Source of the DNA: Escherichia phage KW1E_UTAR
DNA: 45,161 nt
Sequence record: MZ506873
Direction: 5' to 3' (one strand)
How positions within the stretch are numbered: position 1 is the first letter of the stretch; every line of letters begins with the position of its first letter. Below are positions 2,905 through 42,378 of this stretch, one piece after another. The position numbers were made by a program, and so were the translations under genes. Below the pieces are notes generated by a model. That model ran no database searches and was not told the DNA's origin. It worked only from the letters and a program-made list of their open reading frames with translations.

Positions 2905-3434
2905 AGCCGATCACCATCAACCTATCAGACGACGACATCGAATTCGCCTACTACCTTAATGGTAGGGAAGAGACATTCGCGAAGAGTTTAAGCCAGTGCA
3001 GCCCGGACAGTCGGGCTGTGGGAATACTGGGGGAAATGGCGGCGACTCACTTCCTTCGTGGAATGTACGGGACGAAGCGATCTGTCGTTCCTATGGGGCT
3101 GTCTGCCCGCGCTGGCGGCGGCCTTAACGCTTACGGAATGGGTGACATCATCACCGTGATGAACGGCTCGCCCTCCCACAGGACGAAGGAGGTTCACACG
3201 TTCGAAGTGAAGGCGCGCACCGCTGGTGCAGGTAAGGGAAACCTTGTTCGATGTGACAGCGCCGAACAGTATCAGGAGTCCGGCATTATGCGCGTCATCT
3301 TCGTGGACGTCGATGTCCAGCCTGATCGTGCAGTCTGCCAGATCGTCGGCTACCATCAGCCTGAAGACATCCTTGAATGGGACGTGGTCACAAATGGCAT
3401 GGGTCAGGAATGCTATATCATGCCCGTAATTTGA
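2901..3434 (+). CDS. hypothetical protein, possible PD-(D/E)XK (VRR-NUC-like) nuclease
   Basis: GTG start overlapping upstream stop; GMGDIIT...FEVK...SAEQ...RVIFV resembles a D...(E)xK nuclease core. Confidence 0.45.
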   Translation: MKPITINLSDDDIEFAYYLNGREETFAKSLSQCSPDSRAVGILGEMAATHFLRGMYGTKRSVVPMGLSARAGGGLNAYGMGDIITVMNGSPSHRTKEVHTFEVKARTAGAGKGNLVRCDSAEQYQESGIMRVIFVDVDVQPDRAVCQIVGYHQPEDILEWDVVTNGMGQECYIMPVI

Positions 3435-3459
3435 CCGACAAGATCCACGGCGTTACTAT

Positions 3460-3490
3460 TCCCCGGACTAACACTTCGGGGATTTTTTTT
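3460..3490 (+). terminator. rho-independent terminator
   Basis: TCCCCG-gactaacactt-CGGGGA hairpin followed by a T8 run. Confidence 0.55.
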
Positions 3491-9346: not shown

Positions 9347-10774
9347 TTATTCGTCTAACAGTGGATTGTTAGCCATTATCTTATAGTCGATGTACATCTG
9401 AACGGCGTTTTCGCCACGCCCTTCGGTCCGCTCAACGATGTGGTGGGCCTTGACCAGCGCGGACAGCGCGCTAATGACAGACCCGCGTGGCATCCCGGTG
9501 ATCTCCGTCACCATGCGGCGCGCTGCTGATACAGATTCGCGGCCCTTCAGTTCGGCGCAGAACACGCGATACACCTCTTTCTGGTTATCGGTCCAGCGGT
9601 GACGGGTTCGACGCTCTTCCGGCGTTTCCTGCTTCTCTTCCTTCTGACCGACCACTTCGGCGGAGTTATCCAGGATGTACGTCATGAACGGTGATTTGTT
9701 CACTCCGGGGATCTCCGTCGGCATGTCTTCCAGCTTGATCGTGAACTGGGATTCGTACTCGTCAAGCAACGCCTTCTCTTCGGCCTTCGGGACCGACAGC
9801 GTCGGGCGACCACACAGTCGAAGCGTGGCATTGAACCCGCCGCCGCGCTGCTTGTCCGGGGTCAACATGACACCGTCGCCGTCCTTCTCACGGCGAAGAG
9901 ACCACGTCTTCCACATCGCGCCCTTCGCCGCGCCACCGCCTCGCGAATCCATCTTGCCGTCACCGGACAGGCTGGCCTTCGTCGGGTGGGACAGGAAAAG
10001 CCCGGCAGCCCCGATCGATTTGCAGAACAGCAGAGAGTTCACGCTAATGGCTTGCTGGTCATCGTTGCTGTTCTCTTCCAGCGACGAACCGTTCGACCGG
10101 ATGCAATGGGTCATGAGCGCGGCCTTAGTGTCGAACACCACCAGCTTGATCGGCTCACCAGCGGCCCAGTCATACAGCGTATTGATGTGGTTCGTCAGCG
10201 CTTCGCCTGGGCGGATGCCTTCCTTCGTCTTAACGAACGCCATAAGGTTCGGGAAGTTCGCAGTCACATAGACGCGGTCCTGAAGCTGGACGTCTTCAGC
10301 CAGTTCGATAGCGCGCAGCATAGCGCGGAATCCTTCCGGGTCCTCTGAATACACCACGACCCGCCCAGGCACCACGCGGAACGCTCCGAGGAAGTGACCT
10401 ATCTGTGTGTCGGCGATGCAAGCGGCGAGGCGCGCCACCACTGTCGACTTCCCTGTCCCTGGCCCGGCGACCAGCTCATTGATGGTGTTCGAATACAGCA
10501 TGTGCTCCACCACGACGTCGGGGACGCGGCGATCGGACACCTTCTTCTTCGTCCCGGTCAGTAGGTCCAGCTTGCGCTGAAGGTCGGGAACAGAATCGTT
10601 CTCTTTGGCGTGGAACGCGTCCATGTCCCGATAGACTTCGGCCCACTCTTCCGGCGTCAGTTCGACCTGAAAATCGTCGTCTGTCTCACTTGTCGGAACG
10701 ACCATTTCGACAGGCATGTTCTGGTTGTCTTGCGACGTCGGTTCGACACCGCCGCCATTCTCTAAGTTATCCAC
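9347..10774 (-). CDS. AAA/RecA-like ATPase with C-terminal winged-helix domain (possible replication initiator, helicase or regulator)
   Basis: Walker A GPGTGKST, Walker B-like LVVFDT, C-terminal HTH-like segment; GTG start with AGAGGG upstream. Confidence 0.7.
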   Translation of the reverse strand: MDNLENGGGVEPTSQDNQNMPVEMVVPTSETDDDFQVELTPEEWAEVYRDMDAFHAKENDSVPDLQRKLDLLTGTKKKVSDRRVPDVVVEHMLYSNTINELVAGPGTGKSTVVARLAACIADTQIGHFLGAFRVVPGRVVVYSEDPEGFRAMLRAIELAEDVQLQDRVYVTANFPNLMAFVKTKEGIRPGEALTNHINTLYDWAAGEPIKLVVFDTKAALMTHCIRSNGSSLEENSNDDQQAISVNSLLFCKSIGAAGLFLSHPTKASLSGDGKMDSRGGGAAKGAMWKTWSLRREKDGDGVMLTPDKQRGGGFNATLRLCGRPTLSVPKAEEKALLDEYESQFTIKLEDMPTEIPGVNKSPFMTYILDNSAEVVGQKEEKQETPEERRTRHRWTDNQKEVYRVFCAELKGRESVSAARRMVTEITGMPRGSVISALSALVKAHHIVERTEGRGENAVQMYIDYKIMANNPLLDE

Positions 10775-13288: not shown

Positions 13289-13521
13289 ACACAGTACAGG
13301 CGAAGTCATTAGCGAAAAGCAAACAGATGGAGGTTACGGCAGACCACACCCTGAACGGGAAGACATACTTCGTGGTGATTGATACCACCAATGACGAGGC
13401 GGTGATTGTAAACCGAGCCAGTCGCGTATGGTGGCGGCCTGAAGGGGCTATCGCTAACCATCTTCGTGGGGTGGCTATCGAAGTGGCTGTTTGCTCGTTA
13501 TTATGCCGCCGTAATAAATAA
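13285..13521 (+). CDS. hypothetical protein
   Basis: Start ATG 13285 in ATGA overlap with upstream stop (ORF-track frame 13135..13521). Confidence 0.45.
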   Translation: MNTVQAKSLAKSKQMEVTADHTLNGKTYFVVIDTTNDEAVIVNRASRVWWRPEGAIANHLRGVAIEVAVCSLLCRRNK

Positions 13522-13524
13522 TCC

Positions 13525-13552
13525 TTGACGCGTCATTCGTGGCGCGTAATAC
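13525..13552 (+). promoter_or_regulatory. sigma70-like promoter (TTGACG-N16-TAATAC), copy A of a duplicated 42-bp element
   Basis: Shares an identical 21-mer and ATTCGTGG spacer core with the element at 20806-20847. Confidence 0.5.
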
Positions 13553-13582
13553 TGTCCAGACACCAACCAATGAGGCCACAAC

Positions 13583-13915
13583 ATGATAAGCATGACCAAA
13601 ATTAAGCTTAACAACCACAATGGATACTCTTCTCTGAAGGACTACCCGTTCCCGGTTGTCGTGAAAGTGATCAACGAGCGAAGCGCAGCGTATTGCATCA
13701 ACGATGACGGCGGACTGATTGAAGTGTCATGTGACGAACTCGTCAAGGCAGCGCCTGAATGGGATGCTCCTTCATGGTTCGAAGGCGAGACAATCCACTT
13801 TTCACGAGGTGGCTGGTTCGATCCTGGAGAGAGGGCAGGCTGGAGTCCGATCGACGACAACCCGTTCGCGCACTGGAACGCCCTGAAGTCATCCCGTCCC
13901 GTGGGTGCGCTATGA
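13583..13915 (+). CDS. hypothetical protein
   Basis: 110-aa ORF with TGAGG upstream. Confidence 0.5.
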   Translation: MISMTKIKLNNHNGYSSLKDYPFPVVVKVINERSAAYCINDDGGLIEVSCDELVKAAPEWDAPSWFEGETIHFSRGGWFDPGERAGWSPIDDNPFAHWNALKSSRPVGAL

Positions 13916-14940: not shown

Positions 14941-15237
14941 ATGGCAAGAACGAAGGCTTTATCCGTACTCACGAACGCGCAGGTCTACACGTTGCGCCGC
15001 CTGGCCTCTGGTCGGTCGTACATGTGTCAGGGCAACGGGAAGCGAGCATTCGAGCGCCGCAAGGAATACCGCGTAGGCTTCGACGATGTGAACGCGCCGT
15101 CAATCCCGCCACTGATTCGGAAGGGACTCGCCAGGATTGACCCGCGCTACACCAACCCGAACCCGACCAGCTATTACCCGGTAGTTCTGACCGTGGAAGG
15201 CGTCAAGGCAGCAAAAGAGGCGGTGATTAATGATTAA
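14941..15237 (+). CDS. hypothetical protein
   Basis: ORF-track frame 14932..15237; start chosen at ATG 14941 after AGGAG. Confidence 0.5.
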   Translation: MARTKALSVLTNAQVYTLRRLASGRSYMCQGNGKRAFERRKEYRVGFDDVNAPSIPPLIRKGLARIDPRYTNPNPTSYYPVVLTVEGVKAAKEAVIND

Positions 15238-16633: not shown

Positions 16634-16803
16634 AGGCTCTGTTCTGGATCGTGGTTTTCGGTCTACTGTTCTTAATGGCTGGCCTTGAGTCAAACAGTCG
16701 CCGTGAACGTTGCGAAGTCGACATGGCAAAGCAGCTACACAGCGAAGCCATTTATCAGCATGGTGAATGTATTGTGAAAGGATGGGGCAAGGTTCGACTA
16801 TAG
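16630..16803 (+). CDS. 57-aa small membrane protein (tentative)
   Basis: Hand-translated MKALFWIVVFGLLFLMAGLE...; ATGA overlap with upstream micro-ORF. Confidence 0.35.
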   Translation: MKALFWIVVFGLLFLMAGLESNSRRERCEVDMAKQLHSEAIYQHGECIVKGWGKVRL

Positions 16804-16823
16804 CCACCAACCTGTAATAGAAT

Positions 16824-16856
16824 GGCCCCATTGATTTAACCTCATGGGGCCTTTTT
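16824..16856 (+). terminator. rho-independent terminator directly upstream of the terminase large subunit gene
   Basis: GGCCCCA-...-TGGGGCC hairpin followed by TTTTT; terminase ATG follows at 16858. Confidence 0.55.
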
Positions 16857-16857
16857 C

Positions 16858-19691: not shown

Positions 19692-20809
19692 TGGCGAAAT
19701 CAGTCAATCAACGACTGGCAGACGAGGCGGTTAAACACCGCCTTTATCTGGCCCGTTACGGAACCGGGACCGCGCGCAAGATGCAAGCGGCGATGAAAAA
19801 GGCCGAACTGGAAATCAGTGTCCAGCTATTCCGCGCGCTTGAACAGGTTCAGCCCACAGCGATGAACTGGAACCAGCGCCACCTGGCGCAGATCAAGAAG
19901 TCCATCCAGAAGACCGTGTTCAGCGTATACGAACAGGTCTTCGGTCAGCTTAACGCAGACCTGAAGGAGCTAGTCCAGTATGAAGCGAAATATCAGGCGG
20001 CGAATCTCGCGTCAGCGATCCCTCTGGAGGCTCAACCGTTCGTGAACATCCAGTCGACGACGTGGTCACAGGTCTGGGCGTCAGCCACGGCGAAGCCATT
20101 CCAGGGCGCTCTTCTGAAGGAGTGGGCCGACCGTCTGCCGGAAGCGCTGGTCAACAAGATCGGTAACGCTGTCCAGCAGGGCGTGTTACTGGGCGAAAGC
20201 TACACCGATATCATCAAGCGCGTGAAGGGAACGAAGCAAGCAGGGTATGAAGACGGCGTCGTCGGGCGTCAGCGCAAGGGCGATCTGGCTAACCTGGTGA
20301 AGACCGCCGTGAACCATGTCACCGCTGAAGCGCGTGAAGAAACAGCGAAGGTGAACGAGGACATCATCCGGGCGCGGGAATGGCTATCCACTCTGGACAC
20401 GCACACATCGCCGATGTGCATCATTCGCGATCGCCTGATGTACACCGCTGGCAGCAAGCCGAAGCCAATCGGACACAGCATTCCATACGGGGCTGGACCT
20501 GGGAGGCTTCACTTCTGCTGTCGCTCCACTGAAACGTGGGTCATCAAGTCGTGGGAAGAGTTGGGTATTCCAATGAAGGAGCTGTCACCGGGTACGCGCG
20601 CCAGCATGAACGGGCAGGTCCCGGCAAACATGACCTATTCGAAGTGGCTGGCCCGACAGGACTACTCCACACAGGAGCAAGTATTGGGCGTGACCCGCGC
20701 GCAGATGCTACGCGACGGCAAGATCGACGTCCCTGATCTGTTCGGTGATAAGGGCGAATGGCTGACTCTGAAGCAACTGGCGGAATTAGACAGGATTACA
20801 GATTCGTAA
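19691..20809 (+). CDS. head morphogenesis protein (Mu F / SPP1 gp7-like)
   Basis: Position after portal; HTSPMCIIRD resembles the conserved Cys motif of MuF-like proteins. Confidence 0.7.
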   Translation: MAKSVNQRLADEAVKHRLYLARYGTGTARKMQAAMKKAELEISVQLFRALEQVQPTAMNWNQRHLAQIKKSIQKTVFSVYEQVFGQLNADLKELVQYEAKYQAANLASAIPLEAQPFVNIQSTTWSQVWASATAKPFQGALLKEWADRLPEALVNKIGNAVQQGVLLGESYTDIIKRVKGTKQAGYEDGVVGRQRKGDLANLVKTAVNHVTAEAREETAKVNEDIIRAREWLSTLDTHTSPMCIIRDRLMYTAGSKPKPIGHSIPYGAGPGRLHFCCRSTETWVIKSWEELGIPMKELSPGTRASMNGQVPANMTYSKWLARQDYSTQEQVLGVTRAQMLRDGKIDVPDLFGDKGEWLTLKQLAELDRITDS

Positions 20810-20819
20810 TAAATAATCC

Positions 20820-20847
20820 TTGACGTTGTATTCGTGGTAAGTAATAA
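20820..20847 (+). promoter_or_regulatory. sigma70-like promoter (TTGACG-N16-TAATAA), copy B of the duplicated 42-bp element
   Basis: 34 of 42 nt identical to 13511-13552, including the 21-mer CGTAATAAATAATCCTTGACG. Confidence 0.5.
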
Positions 20848-20879
20848 TCCCTCCCAGACATCAACCGGAGGGATTTTTT
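20848..20879 (+). terminator. hairpin plus T6 (terminator or attenuator) that sequesters the SD of the downstream gene
   Basis: TCCCTCC-cagacatcaacc-GGAGGGA then TTTTTT then ATG 20880; the 3' arm contains the GGAGGG RBS. Confidence 0.45.
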
Positions 20880-21110
20880 ATGGAGCGTAACGAGCGGTTA
20901 GCCCGCGAAGCCGTCATCATGCTGGAAAAGGAAGCTATGAACCTGCTTACCAACTTCCGCCAGGCCATACCGAAGCTGGGCGCGCAAGGCGGTGATCAGG
21001 GTGATAGTGACTGGGCTGACGTCAAGCTGTGCGAAATGGCAATGAACCGCATTGTCCGCGATCTGCGCTACATCATTCAACGTAACAACTGGTTAATCAA
21101 AGGTGAATAA
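20880..21110 (+). CDS. hypothetical protein
   Basis: 76-aa ORF downstream of the promoter/hairpin. Confidence 0.5.
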   Translation: MERNERLAREAVIMLEKEAMNLLTNFRQAIPKLGAQGGDQGDSDWADVKLCEMAMNRIVRDLRYIIQRNNWLIKGE

Positions 21111-21111
21111 C

Positions 21112-22134
21112 ATGGAACTTCAGAATCAATTCGGCATCAACGAACTAAACGTCATCGGCGCATACGCTAACTACAACGCCGCGCTGAACATCAACGTCGC
21201 AAGCTTCAACGTTCACGACGTCGCGGCAGCGGTCCAGATCGCACTTCAGGCCGACGGACTTCGCCAGCAGGTCGGCGAATCGGTGGAAGCTATCGAGAAG
21301 GTAACGCGCGATCATGCCGCTGAAGTTAACGGTATGCAGGAGAAGCTAACCGACGCAGAGATTCGCGTTAAGGAAGCTCGAAATGACACTCGCAAGGCCG
21401 AAGCGTACAGCGAGGAACTCAGCAAAGAACTGAACTCACTGCGCGAAAACCTGGCGTCCATGACAGAATTGAAGGTTAAGTTCAGTCTACTGTCATCCAC
21501 GCACTTCGAGAACGTTGAGTTCATTCGCGGACTGCTGAACATTGGCGAAGAAGTAGGTGACGAACAGTTCCGCGAAGTGGCGAAGGGCATCGTCGACGGC
21601 CTCAAGACGAGCGAGCAGAACCGGACGAAGGCCGCCATCTACTGGTACGACGCATTGCAGAAGGTTCACGAAGCTGTCGGCGGCGATGAAGTAATCGACT
21701 CTGATGGGCTGGGCGATGACGACTTCGTCAACACACTGCGCGATCATGTGGCATCACTTCGCAGTGCGGCAGAAAGCAAGCGCGACGACACGGCGATGAT
21801 CACCCTGAAGACCATCCTGAATATTCTGGATATCGATGTCGGATATCAGACCGAAAACATGCTGGAAATGGTTCGCGGTATCAAAGAGCGATCTGACAGA
21901 TACAACGCTCAAGAATGCGAATGGAAGCGCAACTATAACGAACTGTGCAACGCGCTGGGCGTAGACAGCGTAATTCATGCTGACGTCATAGACGAGGCGA
22001 AGAAGGATGTCGAGAGGCACAAGAAGCAGGAGAACTATCAGCGCAAATATAACGAACTGAAGGGCGCTTGTGGTCTTGCTGGAATGGTTCATGATGTAGC
22101 CGTTCGAATGGCTACTGAAAACCCGGTACGCTAA
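21112..22134 (+). CDS. coiled-coil protein of unknown function
   Basis: 340 aa, heptad-rich and Glu/Lys-rich; start chosen at ATG 21112 after AAAGGTGA (track GTG 21103). Confidence 0.55.
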   Translation: MELQNQFGINELNVIGAYANYNAALNINVASFNVHDVAAAVQIALQADGLRQQVGESVEAIEKVTRDHAAEVNGMQEKLTDAEIRVKEARNDTRKAEAYSEELSKELNSLRENLASMTELKVKFSLLSSTHFENVEFIRGLLNIGEEVGDEQFREVAKGIVDGLKTSEQNRTKAAIYWYDALQKVHEAVGGDEVIDSDGLGDDDFVNTLRDHVASLRSAAESKRDDTAMITLKTILNILDIDVGYQTENMLEMVRGIKERSDRYNAQECEWKRNYNELCNALGVDSVIHADVIDEAKKDVERHKKQENYQRKYNELKGACGLAGMVHDVAVRMATENPVR

Positions 22135-22152
22135 CAGATCTACCAATATTTG

Positions 22153-22180
22153 ACGCCTCCTTCTGGGGGCGTTATTATTT
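22153..22180 (+). terminator. terminator candidate
   Basis: ACGCCTCC-ttct-GGGGGCGT stem with one G-U pair followed by TATTATTT. Confidence 0.4.
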
Positions 22181-22373
22181 CCACGCATCCCGAACCCGAC
22201 AAGGTGGCATTTATGGACGAGTGCTTCCGGGGTGCATTCATTAGCGTCTTGACCCGGTGAAAAAAGCACTGGTTCGTACGGGACGACGCAGCCAGCAGGA
22301 CGCTAATGAATAGGGGTTAGGCTCCTGTTAATCGTGGTTAGGCCACAAAAACTGACATTCACAAGGTGAACCG

Positions 22374-23075
22374 ATGAAACTGACTAAGGCACAATGGGAA
22401 GCGTTACCGGACGGGCTTAAGGCTCTGTATAAGGCGACGGGCGAAGACACTTATGAACCGACGTTCATCACGGCAGAAGATCACGAACAGTCGATCACTG
22501 GCCTGAAGAAGAAAAACGAAGAACTGATCGGCAAAGATAAGGCGTCACGCGAAGCAGCAGCAGCGGCGGAAGCTGAACGTCTGCGCATCGAAGAAGAAGC
22601 CAACCGCAAAAACGGTAATGTGGAAGCGCTGGACGCATCCTGGAAGAAGAAGTTCGAAGAGCAAGAAAACCAGTTTAAGACTGAACTTGCTGGTCGCGAC
22701 GCGTTTATCACTAAGACTCTGGTGGACGCGAAGGCTTCAGAACTGGCTTCTACTCTGGGTCGCGACTCTGCCGCTGTATTACTGCCGCACATCAAGCCAC
22801 GCCTGTCTGTGGAGAAGGGCGAAGACGGAAGTTATTCGACCCGCATCCTGGATAAGGACGGCAAACCATCGGCGCTGACCTTTGAGGAACTGGAAAAGGA
22901 ATTCCGAAGCGATAAGGCATTCGCTGGCGTTATCACAGAACCATCCAGTTCAGGACTGGGCGGGGGCCTTCGTGATACCGGAACGCCATCAAAGGACGCA
23001 GGTAAGGACCTCATGGGAAGCCTGTCAGGTAACAGCAACATGTTAGCCGAAGCGATGAAGCTTGCGGCAGACTAA
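22374..23075 (+). CDS. scaffolding protein (tentative)
   Basis: Ala/Glu/Lys-rich alpha-helical protein immediately upstream of the major capsid gene. Confidence 0.6.
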   Translation: MKLTKAQWEALPDGLKALYKATGEDTYEPTFITAEDHEQSITGLKKKNEELIGKDKASREAAAAAEAERLRIEEEANRKNGNVEALDASWKKKFEEQENQFKTELAGRDAFITKTLVDAKASELASTLGRDSAAVLLPHIKPRLSVEKGEDGSYSTRILDKDGKPSALTFEELEKEFRSDKAFAGVITEPSSSGLGGGLRDTGTPSKDAGKDLMGSLSGNSNMLAEAMKLAAD

Positions 23076-30241: not shown

Positions 30242-30269
30242 AAGCCTTCACATTGTGGAGGCTTTTTTT
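30242..30269 (+). terminator. terminator/attenuator between tape measure and tail tip genes
   Basis: 10-bp stem AAGCCTTCAC-att-GTGGAGGCTT followed by T7, ending at the ATG of the next gene. Confidence 0.5.
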
Positions 30270-30623
30270 ATGGCAATTGATAAATGGAAGTGGGCCGTCC
30301 AGGTCCAGAATGGCGGCGGCGGAATCCAGTATCAGGATCGCCAGCGGACCGCCCAGTTCGGTGACGGTTACGCGCAGAACACGCCGGAAGGGATGAACCC
30401 TATTTCGCTAATCATTCAGGTGGTCTACACCGGGACCACAGCGAACGCGAAGGAAGTCCGTGACTTCATGAACGCGCACAAGACCAAACCATTCACTTAC
30501 GCGCCTCCTGGTGGCGTTCTGGGGCTGTACAACGTCCAGAAGGATAGCGTCCGCTACCAACCACTAAGCCGCAACGTCGCCACTGTGACGTGTACCTTTG
30601 AAACCAACTACGGATTTTATTAA
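30270..30623 (+). CDS. minor tail protein (lambda M-like)
   Basis: About 117 aa, first gene after tape measure, followed by L/K/I/J-like genes; track GTG start at 30255 lies inside the hairpin. Confidence 0.65.
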   Translation: MAIDKWKWAVQVQNGGGGIQYQDRQRTAQFGDGYAQNTPEGMNPISLIIQVVYTGTTANAKEVRDFMNAHKTKPFTYAPPGGVLGLYNVQKDSVRYQPLSRNVATVTCTFETNYGFY

Positions 30624-41871: not shown

Positions 41872-41898
41872 AAAAAAAGGGGCCTTCTATCCGGCCCC
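41872..41898 (-). terminator. minus-strand hairpin plus U7 (internal terminator or attenuator)
   Basis: Minus strand reads GGGGCC-ggatagaa-GGCCCC followed by TTTTTTT, between the VRR-NUC-like and exonuclease genes. Confidence 0.45.
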
Positions 41899-41907
41899 TG
41901 TAATATC

Positions 41908-42378
41908 TCATTCTGTGATTACGCCGTCAAGATACCAGCGCATAAAAATCATAAAACTTTTCCATCCATAGCAGACGACGCCGAACCCTCCGCCTTTTAT
42001 GGACTTCACCAGCCATTCAGATTGTTCTTCGCTTACCGCCGAAGCTAGTGTCTTCGTGGCCCGCTTTAACTCCACAGCGGCGAACCCGAACCGCCCACAG
42101 TGGGACCTGTGATTCACCTGGATGTCACTCGCTCCCTTCTCAAGTCCCATCTGGCGAAGCTGGCTTCTGTACTGCGCCGGAAGGTCTGCCGACTCGTTCA
42201 CGATGTGGCAGATAGCGACGTCCTTCCAGTGCTTCCGCCAGTGGCTAGCGCAGTCGATTTGGTGTAGCTTTTCGACGCGCTTGTCGGTCTTGTCCATGCT
42301 GTAAAGTTCGCAATATCCAGCGGGGTTCATGGACAGCGCCAGCGGGATCCTGTTCTTGTCAGATATCAAACGATTCAT
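41908..42378 (-). CDS. VRR-NUC-like nuclease (tentative)
   Basis: GASDIQV...FAAVELKRA...SEEQSEW...GGGFGVVCYG resembles VRR-NUC; follows the helicase with a 20-nt overlap. Confidence 0.5.
   Translation of the reverse strand: MNRLISDKNRIPLALSMNPAGYCELYSMDKTDKRVEKLHQIDCASHWRKHWKDVAICHIVNESADLPAQYRSQLRQMGLEKGASDIQVNHRSHCGRFGFAAVELKRATKTLASAVSEEQSEWLVKSIKGGGFGVVCYGWKSFMIFMRWYLDGVITE

Follow-up and report, generated by a model that had tools for sequence, protein, structure and literature searches.

The junction between the head-morphogenesis gene and the gene for a 76-aa protein in Escherichia phage KW1E_UTAR (sequence record MZ506873) probably overlaps a sigma-70 promoter, an intrinsic terminator and a ribosome-binding site (RBS) within 70 bp. 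We consider the element real and probably functional, and propose, with a probability of roughly 0.6, that it is a composite of promoter and terminator, resetting transcription ahead of the two-gene cassette that follows the head-morphogenesis gene. The anatomy of the element, its recurrence, its pattern of conservation and its folding energetics were observed in the 45,161-nt stretch of DNA that we analyzed (the ‘window’) and in sequences from related phages.

The window covers a nearly complete siphophage genome of ~45 kb, which is 89% identical to Klebsiella phage vB_KM5a1-KLB22 (KLB22) and ~77–80% identical to KLB16. Its gene order and content are T1-like, with exonuclease VIII, a recombinase, SSB, a helicase, a primase, a Dam methylase and a lysis cassette. 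Virulent T1-like siphoviruses rely entirely on host RNA polymerase. The local gene order is large terminase (16858), portal, head morphogenesis, 76-aa gene, 340-aa gene, scaffold (22374) and major head gene, the two genes downstream of the element being:

20880–21110, plus strand: 76-aa open reading frame (ORF), no PHROG match.
21112–22134, plus strand: 340-aa ORF, with a coil domain according to the KLB22 annotation, no PHROG match.

A single nucleotide separates the stop codon of the 76-aa gene from the start codon of the 340-aa gene, and the two are probably co-expressed. In related phages the head-morphogenesis gene adjoins the scaffold gene and both intervening genes are missing, so we regard the 76-aa and 340-aa genes as an inserted, moron-like cassette. 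Only seven clusters of the 76-aa protein are known, all within the same phage clade. A tblastn search of phage records with this protein returned KLB22 and KLB16 only, and viral-contig scans with the 76-aa and head-morphogenesis proteins returned only the source contig itself.

The upstream edge of the element is the TAA stop codon (20807–09) that ends the head-morphogenesis gene, and ATG 20880 is the earliest start codon of the 76-aa ORF. A stop codon, an AT-rich stretch, −35 and −10 hexamers, an overlapping stem-loop, a Shine–Dalgarno (SD) sequence and an ATG all fall inside 20807–20882. The parts are:

20807–20825, plus strand: front of the cassette, comprising TAATAA stop codon(s), an AT-rich linker and the −35 hexamer TTGACG (20820–25).
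20843–20848, plus strand: −10 hexamer AATAAT, 17 nt 3′ of the −35, unchanged in 9 of 9 versions including the divergent contig L012.
20846–20854, plus strand: hairpin 5′ arm AATCCCTCC, with the anti-SD core CCCTCC at 20849–54.
20855–20866, plus strand: 12-nt A/C-rich loop CAGACATCAACC, which holds the predicted start site C20855/A20856.
20867–20875, plus strand: hairpin 3′ arm GGAGGGATT, which carries the SD GGAGGG (20867–72) of the 76-aa gene.
20874–20879, plus strand: T6 run, with a predicted double role as terminator U-tract and SD–AUG spacer.

A promoter scan matched the hexamers (TTGACG-17-AATAAT) to consensus at 10 of 12 positions, and their near-consensus sequence and separation agree with the 16–18 bp spacing of sigma-70 promoters. 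The first-pass annotation had already recognized this promoter but set its −10 at 20842–47, one base away from the hexamer at 20843–48. It had read the region downstream as TCCCTCC, 12 nt, GGAGGGA, TTTTTT and ATG, a layout that proved exact to the base, with the core arms at 20848–54 and 20867–73 flanking the loop. Its assignment of the GGAGGG RBS of the 20880 gene to the 3′ arm, and of the complement to the 5′ arm, also stands. The stem extends further, to 9 bp (AATCCCTCC paired with GGAGGGATT; 5 G–C pairs), and the inverted repeat reaches 12 nt if one mismatch is allowed, in which case the −10 AATAAT pairs with the T-run (ATTTTT). The 5′ arm overlaps the −10 by 3 nt and fills the promoter discriminator. 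Counting 7–8 nt from the end of the −10, a standard −10 to +1 spacing, reaches the pyrimidine–purine step C20855/A20856, which would put the start site at about 20855–56, immediately past the 5′ arm. Another inverted repeat, at 20792–20820, was dropped from consideration as it is not conserved in KLB16.

Consistent with an intrinsic terminator, the hairpin has a G+C-rich stem followed directly by a U-tract, lies on the coding strand and is 3′ of a stop codon. The 40-nt hairpin has a minimum free energy of −13.2 kcal/mol (z = −3.46; equalled by 0 of 200 dinucleotide shuffles), and estimates for the element range from −12.7 to −13.2 kcal/mol; the wider 91-nt stretch is unexceptional (z = −1.66). 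Intrinsic terminator loops are typically 3–8 nt, a range that the 12-nt loop of this element exceeds; the loop of L012 is 7 nt. The long loop argues for only partial termination, which may be weak. Our terminator scan missed the hairpin because its loop limit was 8 nt. Rfam covariance models gave no match at the gathering threshold across the whole window, and a permissive scan found nothing relevant in 20700–22450 and no hit at E ≤ 1 in 20800–20900.

We observed a large difference in SD accessibility between the two predicted transcripts. The computed cost of opening the SD is 12.4–12.8 kcal/mol in read-through RNA and 1.5–5.4 kcal/mol in RNA starting at 20854–57. By these computations the long transcript hides the SD and AUG and the inner-promoter transcript leaves them accessible, in keeping with the earlier proposal that read-through RNA folds and masks the RBS while local RNA leaves it exposed. 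With 37 nt between it and the stem, the upstream stop codon is too distant for a terminating ribosome to open the stem.

The arrangement recurs within the genome. A scan for hairpins (stem of at least 6 bp, loop of 3–14 nt) followed by a T-run found 16 sites in the window. At 4 of the 16 a sigma-70-like −10 adjoins the 5′ arm, with gaps of 0, 0, −3 and +2 nt, and these four sites precede the holin, large terminase, 76-aa and exonuclease VIII genes. None of 100 simulated genomes contained an abutting site. Shuffling the 45 nt upstream flanks of the real hairpins gave an expectation of 0.11–0.12 abutting sites versus the 4 observed, a count that was reached in 0 of 5000 and 0 of 2000 shuffles in two runs. 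The promoter/hairpin layout is not due to chance. Beside the element itself (module B), the sister modules are:

3431–3490, plus strand: module A, before the holin gene (ATG 3491); TTGACC-17-TACTAT, then TCCCCGGA, 7 nt, TTCGGGGA and T8, with the SD GGGGA in the 3′ arm.
16794–16857, plus strand: module G, before the large terminase gene (ATG 16858); TCGACT-18-TAGAAT, then GGCCCCAT, 12 nt, ATGGGGCC and TTTTTC, with the SD GGGG in the 3′ arm.
41872–41930, minus strand: module D, before the exonuclease VIII gene (ATG 41851); TTGACG-17-(TGa)GATATT, 2 nt, AGGGGCC, 8 nt, GGCCCCT and T7.

The SD lies in the 3′ arm in three of the four modules (GGGGA, GGGG and GGAGGG); these three have no other SD-like element, and in them the T-run spaces the SD from the ATG. 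In module D the SD is separate and 3′ of the hairpin. Every module has its nominal start (7 nt beyond the −10) where the 5′ arm ends, so local transcripts would keep at most 2–3 weak stem pairs. The module hairpins have dG values of −11 to −15 kcal/mol. The computed SD opening cost in read-through RNA versus RNA from the predicted start is 12.1–12.4 versus 2.5–3.8 kcal/mol for the holin module and 11.0–11.5 versus 3.6–4.3 kcal/mol for the terminase module. The loops of the three modules with an SD in the arm are 7–12 nt, compared with mostly 3–6 nt in the plain terminators of the genome, and this greater length fits a loop that doubles as a 5′ leader. Arm sequences differ from module to module (CCCTCC, TCCCCGGA, GGCCCCAT and AGGGGCC) while the geometry is constant, a pattern that argues for RNA pairing over a common protein site. 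The recurrence of one layout at three other genes lends support to the logic proposed by the first-pass annotation.

The abutting layout is also enriched in KLB22 (three sites), KLB16 (four) and T1 (three, versus 0.16 expected), and two other siphophages have one site each. Module D in KLB16 shows a compensatory change from G–C to A–T. In T1 (L024), a TATAAT-like hexamer lies 0–2 nt before a terminator 5′ arm at 15092, 16106 and 28567, and also at 10545 and 14236. The T1 abutting terminators have a −35 at 16–17 nt and lie upstream of the major head gene and other late genes, with the SD placed after the U-tract. A further site in the window, module F (5966, plus strand), is antisense to a conserved minus-strand coding sequence.

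We identified a second copy of the front of the element elsewhere in the window:

13512–13585, plus strand: paralogous plain cassette with the shared stop, linker and −35, followed by ATTCGTGG, GTAATA and the leader CCAGACA.CAACC.

The shared front, TAATAAATAATCCTTGACG, occurs as two exact 19-nt copies, at 20807 and at 13512–13530, with 0.01 expected by chance. The loop of the element is homologous to the plain-promoter leader at 13525 (CCAGACAcCAACC). The 13512 copy has a 3-nt discriminator and a separate SD, and lacks the anti-SD arm and the T-run. To judge by this alignment, the element resembles the 13512 promoter cassette plus two additions, a C-rich anti-SD insertion and a T-run. The paralogue speaks both for a real promoter and for a start near CAGAC. 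The 13512 cassette is a natural hairpin-less control. The duplication is evidence for a repeated promoter cassette, which, like promoter-early stem-loop (PeSL) cassettes, could mediate recombination. Beyond this one paralogous pair, the modules share only consensus and geometry. The cassette at 13512–13585 sits upstream of a 110-aa ORF and has secondary BLAST matches in KLB22 and KLB16.

To examine conservation, we used contigs drawn from the seven clusters of the 76-aa protein, which yielded eight close versions of the element and one divergent version (L012, MN855782). In all eight close versions the −35, the −10 (AGTAATAAT), the 3′ arm and the T-run are unchanged. The spacer between the hexamers drifts at ~8 of 17 positions and varies in length from 17 to 18 nt (18 in L015), and this conservation of the −35 and −10 across a drifting spacer is a further point in favor of the proposed logic. 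The loop drifts at ~5 of 12 positions and also changes in length. The 5′ arm is more variable: it reads AATCaCTCC (C to A) in L006 and L007, seen in two sequencing runs, and has a T deleted in L011. These changes are uncompensated and shift the hairpin dG from −14.0 to −6.9 (L006/L007) and −9.7 kcal/mol (L011). The anti-SD arm is therefore less constrained than the promoter and the SD, a point that qualifies the interpretation in the first-pass annotation.

The divergent L012 reads TAA, TTGACT, 18 nt, AATAAT, t, GCCCTCC, 7 nt, GGAGGGC and T5. An inserted 49-aa membrane ORF starts with its ATG after a further 27 nt, which contain a separate SD. The basal pair of the L012 stem shows a double change from T–A to G–C that keeps the pairing, even though GGAGGG is not an RBS there. 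The record of stem upkeep is thus one compensatory double change (L012) versus two uncompensated disruptions (L006/L007 and L011). L012 also retains the terminase module, with a gap of 0, and a module at the far end of the cassette described below. Since L012 keeps promoter and hairpin in the absence of an RBS role, the conserved core is the promoter/terminator overlap. Masking of the RBS, one of two roles put forward earlier for the hairpin, does not hold as its conserved function; from these comparisons we conclude that it would be an add-on, an extra compaction in this clade. The 49-aa hydrophobic ORF in L012 (4856–5004) fits precisely between the conserved hairpin and the homologue of the 76-aa gene, whose start it overlaps (ATGA), and its position marks the cassette boundary as a site of gene gain.

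The module is absent after homologous head-morphogenesis genes in seven distant phages (of Aeromonas, Klebsiella (two), Pectobacterium, Pantoea, Serratia and Edwardsiella). One of these, Aeromonas phage pAEv1818 (L017), has at 1717–1740 the head-morphogenesis stop followed by ACCGCC-ACTC-GGCGGT-T7-ATG. This hairpin has no recognizable promoter or separate SD, and pAEv1818 is alone among the seven in having one.

The 3′ boundary of the two-gene cassette carries a related feature:

22150–22178, plus strand: module E, with a TTGACG −35, a 17-nt spacer and a TATTAT −10 (10 of 12 consensus matches).

The module E hairpin (22151–74; 10 pairs) lies wholly inside the 17-nt spacer, and the −10 doubles as its T-rich tail. 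This module is fully kept in all relatives, L012 included. Modules B and E thus flank two genes of unknown function that are missing in relatives.

We infer from these observations how the element might operate, including promoter firing, the start position, termination at the hairpin and the relevance of masking in vivo. The stretch between the −10 and +1 would serve as the 5′ arm of the terminator, and the loop would be the first 12 nt of the local transcript. RNA from the upstream terminase–portal–head genes would contain both arms, fold and partly terminate at about the start codon; RNA reading through would carry a buried RBS and be translationally silent. Local RNA, starting at about A20856, would lack the 5′ arm and would therefore neither be terminated nor have its RBS hidden. 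The net effect would be a reset of transcription, with expression of the downstream genes depending on the local promoter.

Several observations weigh against this composite reading. The 12-nt loop is outside the usual 3–8 nt, two stem variants are uncompensated, the L012 3′ arm is not an RBS and the module is missing at the same junction in more distant phages that have a homologous head-morphogenesis gene. Since the upstream and local promoters both look sigma-70-like, a T4-type temporal switch is not evident. A terminator 3′ of a promoter cannot shield it from occlusion by incoming polymerase, and the C-rich discriminator may weaken the promoter. Some of these points would fit a hairpin that is incidental or nearly inert, with a real promoter and RBS and a C-rich discriminator that complements a strong SD by chance. 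Termination would then be negligible, and read-through RNA would be translated through stem breathing or the helicase action of the ribosome. The atypical loop, the two natural variants that break the stem uncompensated and the unremarkable z-score of the 91-nt stretch are in its favor. We nonetheless consider an inert hairpin unlikely: four modules share one geometry with different arms, the T-run always follows the hairpin, L012 keeps its stem through a compensatory change despite having no SD role for it, and the paralogous leader at 13525 works without a C-rich arm or T-run, so those features look added. It is less likely still that the element is a terminator only, with promoter-like hexamers as by-products of the AT-rich stop region and A-tract and the 76-aa gene expressed from read-through RNA. 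AATAAT does pair with ATTTTT, and stop codons and A-tracts enrich −10-like hexamers 5′ of terminators (several of the T1 hexamers include a TAA stop). However, TTGACG at 17–18 nt is invariant in close relatives and persists as TTGACT at 18 nt in L012 while the spacer drifts; the front half duplicates, over 19 nt and without a mismatch, a promoter cassette from another intergenic region; flank shuffles predict 0.12 abutting sites against four observed; and read-through RNA would bury the SD.

Instead of insulating the two transcription units, the overlap might mainly couple them, negatively through occlusion of the promoter by upstream polymerase, as proposed for tufB–secE, or positively through recycling, in which polymerase freed at the T-run would start again at the promoter 30 bp away and so turn masked transcripts into translatable ones. 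Because the terminator sits at about +20, all polymerases that arrive from upstream pass over the promoter, and there are precedents both for promoter exclusion at terminator–promoter overlaps (PMC6735719) and for post-termination sliding and re-initiation (bioRxiv 10.1101/2023.02.10.528045; 10.64898/2026.02.12.705533). No sequence feature separates coupling from simple insulation, and coupling is compatible with the composite model; as the main function we regard it as rather improbable. A more specific version, in which the abutting modules of T1-like phages are dedicated ‘transcript reset’ devices that work with polymerase recycling, is similarly speculative, and we would not expect it to be correct. 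RNA could be released at the U-tract while the polymerase stays on the DNA and re-initiates 30 bp behind; each polymerase passage would then convert silent read-through RNA into fresh translatable RNA, and the tri-functional overlap (discriminator, terminator arm and anti-SD in one, with the U-tract as SD spacer) would have been selected for recycling. A DNA operator for a dimeric regulator overlapping +1 would account for an inverted repeat that sits over the start site. That reading is very improbable, and we rejected it because the arm sequences differ, being unrelated among the four modules; the arm spacing is 7–12 nt and variable even among orthologues, the T-run is on one side only, and compensatory changes keep the pairing and not the sequence. 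We also rejected a 5′-end stabilizer hairpin or promoter-proximal attenuator: the −10 abuts the stem, and the local transcript cannot include the 5′ arm.

The composite promoter/terminator reading has precedents for both of its parts, in the unmasking of T4 gene e and in PeSL cassettes. PeSLs are composite promoter–terminator cassettes of T4-like myoviruses (Arbiol et al. 2010, PMC2839356; Comeau et al. 2014, PMC4122927); they showed both promoter and terminator activity in reporters and flank variable genes of unknown function (PMC2839356). The element resembles them in its stop codon, AT-rich stretch, sigma-70-like −35/−10, overlapping stem-loop, SD and ATG, all within about 50–100 bp, in the presence of several copies per genome and in flanking genes of unknown function that are missing in related phages. 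Module E has the classic PeSL layout. Unlike PeSLs, the element is found in a T1-like siphovirus and not a T4-like myovirus, and its copies resemble one another only in one paralogous pair and in the promoter consensus. The stem-loop here also lies mostly 3′ of the −10 with the predicted start site inside it; the SD forms the 3′ arm, and the U-tract separates SD and AUG.

In T4, long transcripts of e (lysozyme), soc, 49 and I-TevI hide the RBS, and a late promoter lies in the 5′ strand of the helix; transcripts from that promoter lack the 5′ strand and are translated (PMC3014915). The unmasking logic is the same here, and module A likewise precedes a lysis gene, that for the holin. The inner promoter of T4 is gp55-dependent and late and provides an early/late switch, whereas both promoters here look sigma-70-type, and the T4 hairpins are not described as terminators with U-tracts (PMC3014915). 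The inner promoter of our element does not belong to a distinct temporal class as judged by motif, module G and the local promoter both being sigma-70-like, and we identified no phage sigma or late-promoter motif. The element brings these ideas together in a T1-like siphovirus, placing the SD within the stem and using the U-tract to space it from the AUG.

Three other systems offer partial parallels. Salmonella ribosomal and translation operons are linked by terminator–promoter overlaps (2019, PMC6735719). There too the terminator of one unit overlaps the next promoter and links the expression of both, but the operons are chromosomal, the proposed mechanism is promoter exclusion by polymerase load and RBS masking is not described. 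The T1 late region has been described as a series of terminator-bounded ‘transcriptons’ (Roberts et al. 2004, summarized in PMC11447400). The three −10-abutting terminators that our scan found in T1 resemble the modules described here; they differ in that the T1 SD follows the U-tract, outside the stem, and the part of PMC11447400 available to us does not describe an abutting geometry. Finally, the 76-aa and 340-aa genes recall the morons of lambdoid phages, which are discussed in PMC2839356, in being absent from relatives and in having their own predicted promoter (the element) and predicted terminator (module E). They differ in that the phage is of a virulent type, with no lysogenic expression context, and the cassette is co-oriented with the operon.

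If the composite reading is correct, T1-like siphoviruses would partition their late genes with compact units in which one hairpin serves as terminator, discriminator and RBS mask. The PeSL concept would then extend beyond T4-like phages, and unmasking of the gene e type beyond late-sigma promoters. Combined terminator–promoters and polymerase recycling are live questions (10.1101/2023.02.10.528045; 10.64898/2026.02.12.705533), for which the modules would provide natural templates of terminator–promoter coupling and recycling, with the 13512 paralogue as a built-in control. Standard annotation of terminators and promoters misses or mis-orders such overlapping elements.

We made three further observations in the window. 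The leader of the scaffold gene (22179–22373; ~195 nt) is conserved above the level of the flanking genes and has a shared fold of 56 pairs, with compensatory double changes at nine of them. One long helix (~22238–51 with 22296–309) is retained in the divergent L012. Two small hairpins have the same TTAGG loop, GGGG-TTAGG-CTCC and GTGG-TTAGG-CCAC, the latter reading GCGG..CCGC in L008, L014 and L012. The leader has no Rfam match, and KLB22 annotates a 36-aa ORF within this region. We regard it as a candidate for a new cis-regulatory RNA leader, which might bind a protein.

A 10-bp hairpin (AAGCCTTCAC-ATT-GTGGAGGCTT) with a T-run lies at 30242–30269, directly 5′ of the ATG at 30270 of the tail tip protein M gene. 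It buries an SD (GGAGG) at an opening cost of 10.7 kcal/mol, has no promoter and is conserved in KLB22 and KLB16. The tape-measure stop codon is only 7 nt before this stem, so a terminating ribosome could open it, an arrangement that suggests translational coupling.

On the minus strand, 40770–40745 is a perfect 11-bp palindrome (GGCGTAATATA-TTGG-TATATTACGCC) that lacks a T-run. It lies 10 nt 3′ of a promoter-like TTGGGA-17-AATAAT (40808–40780), at the end of the exonuclease VIII gene, and could be an operator or a 5′-end stabilizer hairpin.
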